64,000 nucleotides of DNA from Candidatus Eremiobacteria bacterium (GTDB lineage Bacteria > Vulcanimicrobiota > Vulcanimicrobiia > Vulcanimicrobiales > Vulcanimicrobiaceae): NCBI GenBank assembly GCA_963758295.1, contig CAVWUU010000003.1, positions 160,001-224,000 on the forward strand. The letters are read 5' to 3'. Numbering within the stretch: the stretch's first letter is position 1; each line of letters starts with the position of its first letter. Position numbers: made by a program. Positions 24,001 to 30,000 of the stretch are shown here, in pieces.

Positions 24001-27000
24001 CGTCCATTCACGCGTGTCGTCGTTTGCGAGACCGACACCGTTGCGGAGTCGAGCCGTGTTTTCGCATCGCTGGAAGATTACGAGAAAACGATAGTGCTTG
24101 CCCCGGCGGGCGCAAAGCAACGCTTCGAAAACCTGCGCGAGGTCGCTGAGGTGCTTTTTGTCGGCGATGAATCGGCCACGCAGCTCGATCTTTCCGATGG
24201 GATGAAAACGCTACGCGCGTTTGGCATCCAAAGCGTTCTGTGCGAAGGCGGTCCGACGCTCGGGGCGCGACTCATTGAAGGCGACGTCGTCGATCGCTTC
24301 TACTGGGCGATAGCTCCCGTGTTGCTGAGTAATGCCGAAGCGGTGCCGGTGCTGGCCGGTGCAAATCTTGCAACGATCGGCCGGCGCTTGCGGTTTGACG
24401 GCATGGAGCGCGCGGGCGAAGACGTGGTTCTCACCGGCGTATTGGAACGCGTTTAGGGAAGCGAAAACGATGTTTAGCGGATTGATTGGATATCGAGGCC
24501 ACGTCGCGGCGCTCGAACCGCGTGAAGAAGGCGGCGTCACGCTGCGGCTTCATTGCGAGGGCGTGACGGAAGAAGCGCCGCAAGTGAAAGATTCTATCGC
24601 GGTGAACGGCGTGTGCCTGACGGCAACGGCGATCGACGGCGACGTGGTCGCCTTCGACGTCGTTCCGGAAACGCTTCAGCGCTCGTCGCTCGGAACGCTC
24701 GGTGAAAACGAAAGCGTAAACCTCGAGTACTCATTGCGAATCGGCGATCGTATGGGCGGGCATTTCGTCTACGGGCACGTCGATCGCAGTGCAGCGATCT
24801 TGACACGAACGCCCGAAGGTCAAGGCGAACGCGTGCGTATCGAACGTCCGGCCGCCCTTGCGCCAATGATTGCGGAGAAAGCCTTCGTGGCAGTCGACGG
24901 CGTAAGCGTTACGGTCGCCGCGGCCGGCGATGGCTGGTTCGAAATCGCACTCATTCCCGAGACGCTAGCGCGTACGACGCTCGGTGAACGTTCAGAAGGT
25001 TCGTGTGTAAATTTGGAAGTCGACCCGATGGCCCGGTACGCGCATTCGGTGCTGGAGGCCATGCGTTGAAATTTCGCGATTCGTTGCCGGCCGGCGCGCG
25101 TGTCTTCGAGGCGCGTCTCACGGTACAGTGGGCCGACGTCGATATAGCGGGCATCATGTACTTCGCGGCGTATTGGCGTTTCGCCGAATACGCTGAAATG
25201 GAGATGTTCGGCGAACTCGGCTTTCCGTATAACACGGTCTTCGACGATTTAGACTTCTGGTTACCGCGCGTTCGCGTCGAAGCAGAATACCATGCGTCGG
25301 CCCTAATGGGCGACGTCATGCGGATGCGGACGCACCTCGAAAAAGTCGGCGCATCGAGCGTGAAGTGGAAAACCGTGCTCTTCAACGATTCTACCGGCAT
25401 TGCAAGCGCCGTCATGACGCTGACCGTGGCATGCATGAATCGTGCGACGAAGCGCAGCCAAGCCTTGCCGGCCCAGCTGCGCGAGAAGTTGCTCGCAGCG
25501 TGGACGCCGGTTTAACGCTTTCGTAGCAGTGCAATCGCTTGTTGCGCGCGCTCGTCGCTAAAGTGCGTAGCAAGTTCGCCGAGCGTCTGCGGGACCGACG
25601 ACATAATGACGCCCGCATGAACCATGCGCGCGATAGACGCCCGTTCGCTGCGTTCCGAGGCGCCGTTGCACGCATCCAACACGACGCGCGCTTCGAAGCC
25701 GGCCTCCAGCGCGTGCAACGCTGCACGTTGAACGGCAATTTCCGTAACGACCCCGGCTAGAAGAAGCGTGCGGCGTCCCGTCGCATCGATCGACGAGCGA
25801 AGAGCCTCATCGTCTAACGAATCCGTGCCTTGACGCACGTGGAGCGGAAAATCGTCGCCAAGGACGTCTTCAAGCCGCCTAGTTAACTTGGGGTCCTTCC
25901 CGAGCGCAATAGCAGACACCACGATCGGGATGCCGTAGATCTGCGCCGCCTGCGCGAGCACCGCCGCCGTCTTATCGGTCTCGTGATGGTCGCTCGTGCG
26001 GGCACCTTCCGCAATGCCCTCTTGATGATCGACGAACAGCACTAGGGCGCGGTCGGCAAGGTCGTTCAGGTTCATTGCGCCGTTATACCCGCCGTTTTGG
26101 CGACCGTTGAACTTGACACTTGTAAAGTCCGGGCCGTAGGCTACGCCATATGACCGCTTTTGCCCATCAGCTGAACTCCGCCATGGAGGCCGCAGGCCTC
26201 TCCGCGGCCGAGCTCGCCCAAAAAGCCGGCGTCACGGAATCAGCGGTATCGCTGCTTCGTTCCGGCCGCCGAGAACCTTCGTATAAGACGTTGCAGCGTC
26301 TCACGGGCGTGCTGCCCGATTTGGTTCCGTCACAGGCGCAAGATTCGAACCCCTTCGACATGATTGAAGACGCGATCGATGATATTCGCGCCGGCAAGAT
26401 GGTCGTCGTGCTCGACGACGAGGACCGCGAAAACGAAGGCGACCTTGTGATGGCGGCTCAGATGGTCAGTTCCGAAGCCATCAACTTCATGCGCAAGGAG
26501 GCCGGCGGACTCATCTGCGTGCCGATGCTCGGAAGACGGTTGGACGAGCTGCAGATTCCGCAGATGGTTTCGGACAACACGGCGGTCCACGAAACGGCTT
26601 TCACGGTTTCGGTTGAAGCGCGCGGCGTAACGACGACGGGAATTTCGGCGCAAGATCGCGCCGCAACGATCAAGATGCTGCTCGATCCGGAAGCGACTGC
26701 AGCGGATTTACTGCGTCCCGGTCACACCTTTCCGTTACGCGCCCGGGACGGCGGCGTGCTTGTCCGCGCCGGTCAGACCGAAGCGTCGGTCGATCTCGCA
26801 CGACTCGCGGGACTGTATCCGGCGGGCGTCATTTGCGAAATCATGGCCGAAGACGGAACGATGGAGCGACTCGAGGGGTTACGGAAGTATGCCGACCGCC
26901 ATGGGCTTCGGCTTATCACCGTAAAGGATCTCATAGCCTACCGTATGCGCACAGAAAAACTCGTCAAAAGAGTCGCAGAATTCGAGCTTCCCGCCACGAC

Positions 27001-30000
27001 CGGAAATTGGAAGGGCGTTGCTTACGAGAGCACCATCGACGGCAACACTCACGTCGCGCTCGTCATGGGGGACATCAGCAGCGGCAAAGACGTGCTCGTG
27101 CGCGTGCACTCCGAGTGTCTCACCGGCGACGCGCTGCACTCGATTCGTTGTGACTGCGCGGCCCAGCGTGACGGCGCAATGGCCATGATCGCTCACGGCG
27201 GCCGCGGTGTTTTCTTGTACTTGCGGCAGGAAGGGCGCGGCATTGGCCTTGCCAACAAGCTTCGCGCGTACGAACTACAAGATAAGGGAGCGGACACGGT
27301 CGAAGCAAACCTCGCGCTCGGGCTGCCGGTCGACAAGCGCGACTACGGCATCGGCTCGCAAATCCTCGCCGATCTGGGCGTCAAAGAAATGCGCCTCATC
27401 ACGAACAATCCGCGCAAAATTTTTGGCCTCGAAGGCTACGGCATCAAAATCACCGATCGCGTGCCGATGCAGACGAAGCCGACGGTCTACAACAAGCATT
27501 ACATGGCGACGAAGCGCGCGAAGCTCGGCCACATGTTCGACGACACGGTGGCTTCGTGAAGCTAAACGGATCCAGCCGTCCGCAGCCCGGGGTGCCGGAC
27601 TGCAACGGCAAGCGGTTTGCCGTCGTTGCGGCACGGTTTTATCGCGAACTCACGGATTGGCTCATTGACGGCGCGAAGCGCGCGTTGCGCGACGCGAACG
27701 TCGATGAAGCGGATATTTCGGTTTACGAAGTCCCGGGATGTTTCGAGTTGCCGCTCGCGTGCCGTCGTCTTATCGATCAGGATCGCGTTGATGGAATCGT
27801 TGCCGTCGGCGTCGTGATTCGAGGCGACACGCCGCATTTTGATTTCGTTGCGGGTGAGTGCGCGCGCGGAATCATGGACGTGCAACTGATGACCGGCGTG
27901 CCGATCGGCTTCGGCGTCTTGACCACAGAGAATCTTGTGCAGGCCGAAGAACGGGCCGATCCGAGGCGCGGAGATAAGGGATACGAGGCAGCCGTTGCGG
28001 CTGCGACCCTCATGCACATTCCCGCCGACCTTCCTCGCGCCGGCTTTCGGTAAAAGATCTGCGGGAGCGGGTACGCTCTGCGCATGCAAGACCGCAATCA
28101 AAAAACGCTAGACGGCGAGCCGCTCGTAGATCGCGGCACGATCGAATCCCGACGCGACGAAGAGACGCAAGAAATGGAACAAAATCCGCCGGTGGACGAA
28201 ACGGATTCCGGACCGCAACCGGTTCTCGGGAGCAATGACGCCGAGCCGCGCAATACCAACCAAGAGAAGCATCCCACGATAGCAGCGGAAGACGCCAAAG
28301 ACACGTAACGTCGAGAGGGTCGGGCGACGCTTGGCCGGTATGCGGGGCAAAGGAGGGGTTCGCTTACCAAAGTCGCATTAAGCTTGCCCTAACCCATCAG
28401 CGTGTGGAGGCCTCGACCCGTGGAAGACAAGATGATCACCTGTAAGGACTGCGGCAATGAGTTCGTGTTTACAGCACGCGAGCAGCAGTTTTTTGCCGAA
28501 AAGGGATTTCAGAATCAGCCGCAGCGCTGCCGCGAATGCCGCCAAGCCCGGCGCGCGACGAGCGGCGACGGCATCGGTTCGAGCGCCCAGCGCCCGAGCT
28601 TTGAAACCGTGTGCGCCGCATGCGGCGTGAATACCACCGTACCGTTCCGTCCTCGCGGCGATCGCCCGGTGTACTGCCGCACGTGCTACACCGCGCAGGT
28701 CCCGGCGGGCGTTTAACGACTTTCGCGTAAGCTCGAATGACCCGCTCGCGCCGGTCCCGAATGGGCTCGGCGCGATGTCTTTCTCCCCTGTTCCGCAGCC
28801 TCTCGATGCCGTTCTCTGGGACGGCGGCGTGTTGACCTATGTCGATCAGCGTCTCCTTCCGCACGAAGTGCGACGCGTTCGCGCAACGTCCGTTGACGAA
28901 ATAGAAGCGGCAATTAAGACGCTGGCGGTTCGCGGAGCGCCGGCGATTGGCGTTTTCGGCGCCTACGGCGTTGCGTTGTTACGCAGCGGCATCAAAGACA
29001 ACGCCGAGTTCGCCGCCGCCGCGCAACGCGTGCGCAACGCACGGCCGACGGCGGTGAACCTCGCGTGGGCCGTCGACCGCGTTATGGCTGCGCCCGACAT
29101 GGTTGCCGAAGCGCAAGCGATCCATCGCGAGCAAATCGCGATCGATGCGGCAATCGCCGACGCCGGACTCGATCTCATCGCGAGAAACGCACAGATCATC
29201 ACGCATTGCAACACCGGCCCGATTGCGACCGCCGGCGGCGGCACGGCACTCGGCGTGATCATCCACGCGCACCGCGCCGGAAAGCATCCGCACGTTTTTG
29301 TCGATGAAACCCGCCCGTTGCTGCAAGGCGGGCGGCTAACCTACTTCGAGCTGGCGCACGCCGGCGTCGCCGCCACACTGCAAGTCGACGGCGCGGCCGC
29401 AATTGCGATGCAACGAAAAAGTATCGATCTCGTCATCGTAGGAGCCGACCGCATCGCGAGAAACGGTGATACCGCCAATAAGATCGGCACGTACGGTCTC
29501 GCGGTGTTGGCCGCGCATCACGGCATTCCGTTCTACGTTGCGGCACCGCGTTCGACGTTCGACTTTTCGATGCAAAGCGGTGAAGAAATCCACATCGAGG
29601 AGCGCGCCGCCGAAGAAGTAACTTCGTTCGGCGGGTCGTCTGTCGCCGTGGCCGATGCAAACGTTTATAATCCCGCGTTCGACGTGACGCCGGGACATCT
29701 CGTGACGGCGTTTATCACCGAGTACGGCGTCATTCGTCCGCCGTATCCGGAGATGATTCCGGCGCTGGAACATCGTCCGAATTTCGGCGTGCTCGCCTAG
29801 CGTGAAGTTCTACGACTTCATCGATAAGCAGCCGAAGATCGGCGGCCTTGTGATCATCGAGGGAACGGAACGGGTGCTCGCGGAGCGCGCGCTCGAAGTT
29901 CTGCTCGACCGGCTTTTGCCGCCGGACATGCGCGATTTGAACCTCGAACGCGTTCCGGCTTCCGAATGGACCGACGCCGGCCGCGTGCGCGACGCCCTCA

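Follow-up and report, generated by a model that had tools for sequence, protein, structure and literature searches.

In most bacteria, the FMN riboswitch exerts negative feedback on ribB/ribBA or on whole rib operons. BirA, NadR, and PutA instead carry an N-terminal DNA-binding domain on an enzyme and repress genes of their own pathway, with the catalytic domain providing dimerization and/or sensing; their co-repressors are biotinyl-AMP, NAD, and the redox state of FAD, respectively. Regulators such as 434 repressor/Cro, SinR, and DdrO bind as dimers to short palindromes that overlap promoter elements, and the C proteins of restriction-modification systems use a small XRE-type helix-turn-helix (HTH) that acts on a palindrome at the -35 and so autoregulates a leaderless promoter. 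C proteins are co-transcribed with, or fused to, a downstream enzyme gene, and they exert biphasic activation/repression. The closest known system to the one considered here is the archaeal RbkR. RbkR (Rodionova et al. 2017, PMC5397151) joins a winged HTH to a riboflavin kinase, senses FMN/CTP, is proposed to be an activator, and controls several rib and transport genes; the same paper names BirA, NadR, and PutA as bacterial trigger enzymes.

A soil-bacterial order carries a DNA-binding head on RibBA, the entry enzyme of vitamin B2 synthesis, which would be a protein solution to a task left to an RNA switch by most bacteria. Searches of a PMC/bioRxiv library turned up no paper on this HTH-RibBA fusion. 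Both systems comprise a bifunctional riboflavin-pathway enzyme with an N-terminal DNA-binding domain (the regulatory role being predicted here), both occur in lineages without FMN riboswitches, and in both cases the prediction came from comparing palindromic sites across genomes. They differ in the enzyme (the entry enzyme RibBA here, a kinase there), in the fold (XRE/Cro as opposed to winged HTH), in being found in Bacteria and Archaea, respectively, in the regulon (one promoter, its own, is predicted here, as opposed to several genes), and in the sign of control, which the geometry suggests to be repression here and which was proposed to be activation for RbkR. RbkR-family domains (CTP-dependent riboflavin kinase and winged HTH) were not found in HTH-RibBA by Pfam, and it is not a member of that family. 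BirA, NadR, and PutA are likewise enzymes whose N-terminal DNA-binding domain acts on their own pathway, as is predicted for HTH-RibBA, but they belong to other enzyme families and have other HTH types. The 434 repressor/Cro, SinR, and DdrO share its helix-turn-helix fold and dimerize through small C-terminal parts, whereas HTH-RibBA would, according to a structural model, do so through its 400-residue two-enzyme body. The resemblance to C proteins extends to the XRE-type HTH, the -35 palindrome, a probably leaderless promoter, and linkage to an enzyme; the box sequences differ, however, and the context of C proteins is non-metabolic and their response biphasic. The FMN riboswitch, finally, is made of RNA and lies in a 5' leader, whereas the HTH-RibBA gene appears to have no leader, its ATG lying 7 nt after the -10 hexamer. 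In architecture, site, and the co-evolution of the two, HTH-RibBA fits the trigger-enzyme class, of which it is a candidate member.

The gene lies within a window of 64,000 nt (CAVWUU010000003.1, 160,001 to 224,000), the whole stretch of DNA that was analyzed and to which all coordinates refer. The ORF at 26150-27559 (plus strand) encodes 469 residues, and its reading together with Pfam bears out the first-pass annotation of a three-domain fusion on one protein: an XRE/Cro-type HTH (residues 1-55, 26150-26314), DHBP synthase (RibB; residues 73-264, 26366-26941, 285 bits), and GTP cyclohydrolase II (RibA; residues 274-439, 26969-27466, 235 bits), all on the plus strand. The HTH is recognized by HTH_3 (34.5 bits against a cut-off of 23, residues 11-55) and HTH_31 (30.8 bits against 27), and its nearest solved relatives by sequence match are DBP48, 434 repressor, SinR, and DdrO. 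In an AF2 model it forms helices at residues 3-15, 19-26, 30-38, and 45-54 in a block with a pLDDT of 71-91, the recognition helix corresponding to about residues 30-38; outside the HTH, the monomer was modeled poorly (mean pLDDT 51.6). A variable linker follows (residues 56-68, 26315-26353, plus strand), which from its pLDDT (41 for residues 61-70) and column conservation is probably disordered. Column conservation is 0.89 for residues 28-45, which hold the recognition helix, 0.44 for the linker, and 0.90 for the enzyme core; the predicted recognition helix is conserved on a par with the catalytic core. On the single chain, PF00926 is covered from 1 to 191 of 191 positions and PF00925 from 2 to 165 of 165, the M. 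tuberculosis RibBA (PDB 4i14) matches over residues 69-462 with an E value of 1.8e-136, and the motifs DDEDRENEGD and zinc HSEC..x..CDC are present. The motif GHTEA, however, reads GQTEA in 46 of 50 sequences, those of the unfused sister order among them, with glutamine in the place of a histidine that serves as a metal ligand. In nearly every one of the order's 61 genomes there is a single RibB/RibA match, and catalytic activity is presumed because HTH-RibBA is the sole RibB homologue found in these genomes. Among the 120 best database matches to residues 1-110, all 120 carry PF01381 together with PF00926, as first annotated; the range of 464-506 aa for full-length homologues was also reproduced, with a count of 117 rather than 116.

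The gene for lumazine synthase, ribH (27556-28053, plus strand; Pfam DMRL_synthase), comes after ribBA in all 30 loci for which downstream DNA is present, and because its start overlaps the ribBA stop, the two are probably co-transcribed. On the other side lie ribD and ribE (23098-25069, plus strand, starts uncertain; Pfam RibD_C plus deaminase, and Lum_binding) and, between ribE and ribBA, a 4HBT-type thioesterase gene (25003-25515, plus strand; Pfam). The latter is upstream in 11 of 59 fused loci, with ribE alongside in 10 of those, is absent from this position in the sister order, and belongs to the ancestral arrangement of the HTH-RibBA order. A divergent isochorismatase-family gene (25512-26075, minus strand; Pfam), which starts 37 bp from the palindrome in the ribBA promoter, was found upstream of ribBA in this genome only (1 of 59 loci); the first-pass annotation does not mention it.

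This palindrome, earlier described as an inverted repeat over the -35 hexamer of ribBA, is indeed there: a candidate operator of 16 bp at 26112-26127, CTTGACA-ct-TGTaAAG, is imperfectly symmetrical, reads CTTGACAcTTGTaAAG (also given as CTTGACACTTGTAAAG), and spans the -35 box, with TTGACA (26113-26118, plus strand) inside its left half-site. The -10-like hexamer TAGGCT (26137-26142, plus strand) lies 18 nt past the -35, rather than the 17 nt first stated, and 7 nt ahead of the ATG. Because of this proximity, we infer a leaderless or near-leaderless ribBA mRNA, and because TAGGCT matches TATAAT at only three of six positions, the promoter is missed by a sigma-70 consensus scan. The palindrome is the sole site at ≤1 mismatch in the 3.03-Mb genome (reversed control, 0), in line with its claimed uniqueness and with the claim that ribD-ribE lack such a site. 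Of the genome's 327 copies of TTGACA, just three continue with nnTGT. With a weight matrix derived from the sites of the 58 other genomes, the ribBA site scores 26.2 bits and the next distinct site, inside a peptidase ORF, 16.0 bits. Since the genome is without a second good site, the regulon would consist of ribBA's own promoter.

Across 59 fused loci from 28 genera, in which kin genomes are not independent, 37 sites match CTTGACANNTGTNAAG exactly, 17 have one mismatch, and 5 have 2-4; TTGACA is perfect in 56. The information content, somewhat inflated because the sites were anchored by best pattern match, is 1.6-2.3 bits at each of the -35 positions 2-7, an equal 1.7-2.3 bits at the right-half positions T10 G11 T12 A14 A15, and 0.02-0.39 bits at the twenty positions upstream of the palindrome, where the flanks are random. 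Half of the conservation of the palindrome is promoter conservation, because the left half-site coincides with the -35; the earlier argument for an operator from the second half-site, TGTnAAG, holds, as this half is conserved as strongly as the -35. TAnnnT is found 16-18 nt past TTGACA, ending 6-9 nt ahead of the start codon, in 47 of the 59 loci, and no conserved divergent -10 was seen among them. With at most one mismatch allowed, hits of the pattern in the order's 61 genomes are almost always confined to the ribBA promoter. One genome, G022, has both halves changed jointly to TTAACg-tc-TGTTAA, with the -35 weakened and the symmetry retained.

Within the phylum sample, the order yielded 107 full-length matches that start at residue 1-4, plus five split genes including the HTH; three genomes are unfused, one gene is truncated by a contig end, and one genome is matchless. 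In the sister order, ribBA has no HTH in 15 of 15, in agreement with what had been claimed for sister lineages. The three unfused genomes nest among fused ones in the gene tree (SH-aLRT 99 and 94), and the fusion had a single origin at the base of one order, followed by loss in three nested lineages. The palindrome is absent from all three, so that HTH and palindrome, correctly described as conserved together, are also lost together. In one of them, G027, TTGACA, 17 nt, TAGCCT, 6 nt, and ATG are kept, and only one of six positions of the right half. FMN riboswitches (RF00050) number 0 in this genome (82% complete) and, under stricter filters, 0 in 151 sampled genomes of the phylum, as annotated, and Rfam gave no match at E≤1 in positions 20000-30000 of the window; the control search was positive in 7 of 14 reference genomes. 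The first-pass annotation went further and placed the fusion in place of the riboswitch, a reading that is not supported, as the latter was not found in unfused sister lineages either: with none in the 151 genomes and no HTH in the sister order, riboswitch loss would predate the fusion. Some lineages do without riboswitch and HTH alike, and the predicted regulation by HTH-RibBA is therefore dispensable.

It is likely, in our view, that HTH-RibBA works as a dimer and as a trigger enzyme, repressing the ribBA-ribH promoter from which it is itself expressed, a role proposed from comparative sequence evidence. The sole RibB/RibA homologue that the genome yielded, it would catalyze both entry reactions of riboflavin synthesis, and its DHBP-synthase homodimer would hold two N-terminal XRE-type heads on flexible linkers of ~13 residues, which would bind the two half-sites of CTTGACA-nn-TGTnAAG. 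Because the left half-site contains the gene's own -35, occupancy by the heads would exclude RNA polymerase and repress ribBA-ribH, and the resulting negative autoregulation would hold the amount of the pathway's entry enzyme constant. A metabolite such as GTP, ribulose-5-P, or a flavin might modulate the binding, but a linker as hypervariable as this one suggests that allosteric coupling is weak, and the default is therefore autorepression that simply follows the concentration of the protein. The autoregulator first proposed thus retains its co-conservation, right half-site, and single-site regulon, and loses its riboswitch replacement. A homodimer model scored 0.90 versus 0.01 for the best of three controls, with confident contacts all within residues 94-238, runs agreeing in at least 98% of contacts, a partner pLDDT of 89, and no HTH residue in the confident interface. 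The tool passes 20 of 30 solved homomers versus 1 of 23 single chains, a calibration that applies only roughly because the alignment was self-made, and the pass may echo known structures because DHBP synthase dimers are already solved. We infer from this model that the DHBP-synthase domain, the predicted dimer interface, makes the homodimer.

The termini of an insertion sequence (IS) present in relatives match the half-sites of the ribBA operator, which is a new observation: they read TGTCAAG...CTTGACA, identical to the half-sites. DDE_Tnp_IS1595 and zinc ribbon domains (Pfam) place the element in the IS1595 family; a transposase with an N-terminal zinc ribbon is encoded at L084:895-1893 (minus strand; 129 and 40.4 bits, respectively), with like Pfam matches at L084:2038-2895 (plus strand) and L086:1330-2442 (minus strand). 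In G152 and G197, 17-bp inverted repeats, GGTATATCRTCTTGACA, stand at both ends, ~2.15 kb apart. In many relatives, although not in this genome, where tblastn found no IS1595-type transposase, the IS lies precisely within the two central nucleotides of the operator and rebuilds the palindrome on the ribBA side. An IS end adjoins ribBA and supplies the left half-site in 26 of 114 family genomes and in 16 of the 59 loci, so that part of the apparent conservation of this half has another source. The usual target duplication of the IS1595 family is 8 bp, which was not seen at the examined insertions; identical 2-bp flanks occur in five of six resolvable cases, and a 12-13-bp duplication also fits most, with G152 favoring 2 bp. 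Extra palindromes elsewhere in a few relatives (G047, G018) are always at IS ends, flanked by inverted repeats or transposase genes.

Tentatively, and with more doubt than belief, the operator and the resident element may be seen as mutually adapted. The IS, which ends in the operator's half-site (…GGTATATCRT-CTTGACA), would enter the central dinucleotide either way round, restoring a working -35 and operator for ribBA, and so would have a "stealth" landing pad ahead of an essential-pathway gene, the rib cluster being repeatedly broken exactly there. Joined IS ends at other places would in turn be targets of HTH-RibBA, so that transposase expression or transposition would depend on how much of a metabolic enzyme is present, and the operator itself may descend from an abutted IS-end junction. 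IS30-type elements target palindromes that resemble their inverted repeats and form abutted ends with a 2-bp spacer; the element here likewise inserts into a sequence resembling its own joined ends, but its transposase is of the IS1595 family and its target is an essential-pathway operator rebuilt by the IS tip. The equality of the palindrome with two abutted IS ends, the insertions at its center, and the IS context of the extra palindromes also offer a non-regulatory origin, in which the palindrome would be a relic or target of the element kept as a good -35, and the HTH would have another target or none. This is improbable, since the right half retains ~2 bits at each position where no IS trace exists (43 of 59 loci, this genome with its random flanks and missing transposase included), and the palindrome also stands, free of any IS flank, in loci that preserve the ancestral ribE-thioesterase-ribBA order. 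Furthermore, a neutral relic should decay, and G027, which lost the HTH, is precisely the place where decay is seen; the genome offers the HTH no other good site.

Autorepression by HTH-RibBA also has to be weighed against activation, or action in both directions, from the same site, which we hold to be unlikely. The center of the site lies ~30 nt before the presumed start, over the perfect TTGACA of most loci, and operators so placed over the -35 usually belong to steric repressors rather than to class I/II activators. G027, without head and right half-site, still keeps -35, -10, and gene, which argues that the promoter works without the HTH protein. Pointing the other way are the weak -10 (TAnnnT with a G+C-rich middle), with which the promoter might need help, and the activator role proposed for RbkR (PMC5397151). 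That a separately encoded regulator binds the palindrome, with the fused HTH serving nucleoid tethering, protein contacts, or the like, is very unlikely: binding by HTH-RibBA is itself a prediction and XRE domains are abundant in genomes, but on the tree the gains and losses of head and site coincide, and the HTH subfamily has no close relatives that stand alone. Of the single-stretch hits scanned above 50% identity, all 10 represent this very HTH; 8 of them extend far enough to include DHBP synthase, and the other 2, short fragments, show the HTH only. Just two weak paralogue matches were seen in 61 genomes.

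RibBA of this genome is encoded on the plus strand at window positions 26150..27559 as a chain of 469 residues. Pfam places HTH_3 at residues 11-55 (34.5 bits, cut-off 23) and HTH_31 within the same product (30.8 bits, cut-off 27), together with complete DHBP synthase (residues 73-264, 285 bits) and GTP cyclohydrolase II (residues 274-439, 235 bits) domains. These four domain matches on one protein bear out the fusion of a helix-turn-helix (HTH) head to RibBA described in the first-pass annotation. The start of ribH (27556..28053, plus strand) overlaps the ribBA stop codon, and ribD, ribE and a 4HBT-type thioesterase gene lie upstream on the same strand. 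Divergent from ribBA is an isochorismatase-family gene (25512..26075, minus strand), and the 74-bp intergenic region between the two contains the palindrome CTTGACACTTGTAAAG at 26112-26127. The -35 element TTGACA (26113-26118) lies within the palindrome and is followed after 18 nt by the -10-like TAGGCT (26137-26142), with the ATG of ribBA only 7 nt further on. No Shine-Dalgarno sequence precedes this ATG, and from the arrangement of these elements we infer a leaderless promoter. It escaped a sigma-70 consensus scan, since TAGGCT agrees with TATAAT in just 3 of 6 positions. No RNA sequencing runs containing the genome are listed, only three soil DNA runs (6-8% of words).

The palindrome is confined to this promoter, as had been claimed: at up to one mismatch it occurs once in the 3.03-Mb genome, and the reversed control gives 0. 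With a weight matrix built from the sites of 58 other genomes, the window's genome being left out, the ribBA site scores 26.2 bits and the next distinct site 16.0 bits; the latter (C1:25165, on another contig) lies inside a prolyl-oligopeptidase ORF and was rejected as an operator. TTGACA itself is found 327 times in the genome and is followed by nnTGT in only 3 cases, so the right half-site is not a general promoter feature. Across 61 genomes of the order, the pattern at up to one mismatch falls almost only on the ribBA promoter.

An alignment of the regions preceding ribBA, taken from every one of the 59 fused loci in this 61-genome sample, reveals how strictly the site is maintained. There are 37 loci without a mismatch to CTTGACANNTGTNAAG, 17 with one, two with two, two with three and a single locus, in G022, with four; the last (GTTAACgtcTGTTAAC) has kept its symmetry with a weakened -35 element. 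Information content amounts to 1.6-2.3 bits at the -35 positions 2-7, 1.7-2.3 bits in the right half (positions 10-12 and 14-15), and 0.02-0.39 bits over the twenty positions upstream, values that are biased somewhat upward by anchoring the 59 sites on their best match. The -10 element had been placed 17 nt after the site, which does not hold for the window itself, where the spacer is 18 nt. In 47 of the 59 loci TAnnnT follows TTGACA at a distance of 16-18 nt, with 6-9 nt between its end and the start codon; over all 59 loci this codon is ATG in 35 and GTG in 24. The idea that the right half-site serves as the -35 element of a divergent promoter was rejected, as no conserved -10-like element is found at the required distance in the 59 loci.

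The phylum sample comprises 201 genomes, and within it the fusion is confined to one order. Counted with the present genome, 117 belong to this order (families f1 and f2), and 107 of these give a full-length match starting at residue 1-4. The others have a split or truncated ribBA that includes the HTH (five: G004, G171, G163, G201 and G154), an unfused ribBA (three: G027, G165 and G149), a ribBA cut by a contig end (G003) or no ribBA match (G183). Nearly every genome of the 61-genome sample has a single ribBA. In the sister order (f3), ribBA is unfused in 15 of 15 genomes, beginning MPLATIEEAIA directly behind ribE, and all matches listed from more distant families are partial or start at residue 63 or later. 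Two genomes of the sample, G180 (fused) and G136 (sister order), are unpublished, and their omission changes nothing. One fragmented order genome, G010 (82% complete, 3% contamination), has two forms, at L060 (C136) and L063 (C96): an unfused ribBA that starts with GTG behind a Shine-Dalgarno sequence, and a fused form, present as a contig-end fragment with the operator; a strain mixture, contamination or two copies could account for this.

The best 120 database homologues of residues 1-110 all combine PF01381 with PF00926, as reported in the first-pass annotation, although the number at full length (464-506 aa) is 117 rather than the 116 given there. Every name supplied by the sources is plain RibBA, and the DNA-binding head therefore goes unnoticed in public annotation. 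A search with residues 1-67 returned no close stand-alone relative and no other enzyme fusion, mostly generic multi-HTH proteins; of ten single-stretch matches above 50% identity that were scanned, all have the same HTH, eight being long enough to show DHBP synthase and two being short fragments with the HTH only. A scan of species-representative contigs, dominated by the universal EDRENEGD pattern, added at least three further fused loci among the 80 listed, all with the operator. In the matches listed from other phyla, the apparent N-terminal extensions hold stops or no HTH.

In a quick maximum-likelihood tree built on the catalytic region (43 rows, family f11 as outgroup), the order forms one clade (SH-aLRT 88). 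Unfused G165 and G149 are nested in a clade of fused genes (support 99), as is G027 (support 94), whose placement is less sure because of its long branch; the nesting of unfused among fused genes points to one gain and at least two losses of the fusion. The palindrome is absent at ribBA in all three unfused genomes, and palindromes at up to two mismatches are at or below the control genome-wide in these and in two sister-order genomes. The proposal that fusion and operator are conserved together and missing from sister lineages is upheld. G027 is instructive, keeping TTGACA, 17 nt, TAGCCT, 6 nt and an ATG that opens straight onto the enzyme (MDDAVVEAAIADVR), with one of the six specified right-half positions left. 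With a single gain, at least two losses and the site lost alongside, the order provides a clean natural series for the origin of enzyme-regulator fusions.

The HTH head resembles those of DBP48, 434 repressor, SinR and DdrO. AF2, run on a 61-row alignment, gives it four confident helices (block pLDDT 71-91 over residues 1-60) followed by a low-confidence linker; the monomer model has a mean pLDDT of 51.6 and is unusable outside the HTH. Among the 59 orthologues, residues 28-45 (recognition helix plus RREPSY) have a mean column conservation of 0.89 and the enzyme start one of 0.90, as compared with 0.44 in the linker. A homodimer of residues 1-270 is predicted with a score of 0.90 against 0.01 for the best control, three runs sharing at least 98% of contacts, with a partner pLDDT of 89, and the confident contacts all fall in residues 94-238 of the predicted interface, that is, in the DHBP synthase domain. 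In calibration, 20 of 30 homomers of solved structure reached the mark, as did 1 of 23 single chains; these counts are only rough here because our own alignment was used, and the pass may reflect solved DHBP synthase dimers already known to the predictor. The enzyme motifs of RibBA are present except for the histidine of GHTEA, which is a metal ligand in DHBP synthase. It is replaced by glutamine (GQTEA; residue 209, window 26774-26776) in 46 of 50 sequences of the class, fused and unfused, including the sister order, and is retained in more distant members of the phylum. Judged from these sequences, GQTEA is a class-wide trait that is unlinked to the fusion.

Taken as a feature of sequence, HTH-RibBA is real and well conserved, and it is most likely autoregulatory. 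In the mechanism we propose, the DHBP synthase domain would dimerise, the two flexibly linked HTH heads would bind both half-sites, occupancy of the -35 element would block RNA polymerase, and ribBA-ribH would be autorepressed, with the ribBA promoter alone as the regulon. Because the linker is variable, plain concentration-dependent autorepression is the default.

Riboflavin synthesis in Bacteria is a textbook case of riboswitch control. Neither the window's genome (82% complete) nor, with stricter filters, any of the 151 phylum genomes sampled (120 of high quality) gave a match to the FMN riboswitch (RF00050), in agreement with the earlier statement that none is found in the phylum; among 14 reference genomes searched as a control, 7 had it. 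Rfam at E≤1 gave no match in 10 kb around ribBA. The further suggestion that the fusion stands in place of the riboswitch fares less well: sister-order ribBA has no HTH and the riboswitch was found in 0 of 151 genomes, so the fusion did not simply take its place. The whole order appears to leave control of its riboflavin entry enzyme to the enzyme, with a head of the phage-repressor type and a regulon of one site. E. coli has its riboswitch only on ribB (PMC5397151), a likeness in that regulation would act on the entry enzyme only, as proposed here. The closest known system is archaeal RbkR (PMC5397151), of which HTH-RibBA is not a member because the domains differ. By likeness, it may be classed with the trigger enzymes (BirA, NadR, PutA). 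A full-text literature search found no paper on the fusion. Consisting of one gene and 16 bp, the system is both minimal and portable.

The palindrome has a double in an IS1595-family insertion sequence (IS) of relatives. Their few extra palindromes are parts of a longer GGTGCnnnnGGTATATCGT-CTTGACA-nn-TGTCAAG-ACGATATACCnnnnGCACC (G047 C30:131994 and C22:80166; G018 C2:175 and C6:2480), and IS1595-family transposase genes adjoin those at G047 C30 and G018 C2; none was found beside G047 C22:80166 or G018 C6:2480. The IS termini, TGTCAAG...CTTGACA, are identical to the ribBA operator half-sites, with 36-bp palindromes of the same ends elsewhere. IS-bearing loci are L084 (G047:C30:130037-133459), L086 (G018:C2:1-2600), L099 (G021:C28), L214 (G152:C2:1685250-1687750) and L215 (G197:C46). 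In G152 and G197 an element of ~2.15 kb has an outward-facing GGTATATCRTCTTGACA at both ends, so that the IS terminates in the operator half-site. In many relatives it sits in the central dinucleotide of the operator, flanked by identical 2-bp sequences in five of six readable cases (TC/TC in G047; AC/AC in G021 and in a 45-bp mini-element of G016; AA/AA in G152 and G171), the sixth being GT/AC in G018, where a second copy abuts. A 12-13-bp duplication fits most cases too; for G152 only the 2-bp reading works without extra mutations.

Descent of the head from the HTH of the transposase was set aside, its one signal being a 27-residue BLASTP match (37% identity, one-to-one E 0.013). The operator looks like joined IS ends, for which reason we consider it most likely that the IS targets the operator; with the order of events reversed, the operator may descend from an IS junction. 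ribBA adjoins an IS end in 16 of 59 loci, and in 26 of 114 family genomes at up to two mismatches to the 17-nt end, G180 being left out. In loci with the ancestral ribE-thioesterase-ribBA order (ribE is within 1.5 kb of ribBA in 12 of 59) the palindrome is mostly without an IS flank, and the window's genome has neither the element nor such a transposase; the operator stands on its own. Both orientations occur, the one in G047 being opposite to that in G018 and G021, and a T2/T3 mismatch in the -35 half is found only in G047 and G018, both with a full IS supplying that half. The IS passenger ORFs of these two genomes show no similarity. With the operator as target, the IS may represent a mobile element that occupies an operator without breaking it. 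This association is probably the reason that most genomes have their rib cluster interrupted precisely at the palindrome. A motif, TTAATGGGCAAAGCC / GCCCATAAA, noted over L007, L011, L017, L026, L041, L134, L215, L217 and L218, recurs just inside the IS ends and, degraded, also 5' of ribBA in transposase-less loci; the degraded copies are probably decayed IS remnants, so that the number of IS-touched loci given above is a minimum.

Several observations concern the surroundings of these sites. The 4HBT-type thioesterase gene (window 25003-25515) lies between ribE and ribBA, a position that it keeps in 11 of 59 order loci. The sister order has no such gene there, and the thioesterase gene seems to have been acquired along with the HTH and the promoter. 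The isochorismatase-family gene looks leaderless too (TATAAC, 6 nt, ATG; window 26073-26111, minus strand) and, since its weak -35 region abuts the palindrome, might be co-repressed in this genome alone. Downstream of ribH, a position held by nusB in many bacteria, a short gap is followed by a small gene (window 28402-28716) encoding two treble-clef zinc fingers (zf_Tbcl, zf_Tbcl_2). An occurrence of TTGACAAATGTCAA in sister-order G138 is unrelated, as it starts a small ORF, ArsR-like at its N-terminus by eye only, with no IS or rib gene nearby. Finally, seven loci (L008, L010, L014, L018, L023, L033 and L135) have a second conserved palindrome, CATACTTGAAAC-n4-GTTTCAAGTATG, ~20-60 nt upstream of the first. 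It overlaps the beginning of a TetR-family gene that runs divergently and has an MFS transporter gene behind it, as checked for L008 and L014, and is probably the own operator of that operon.
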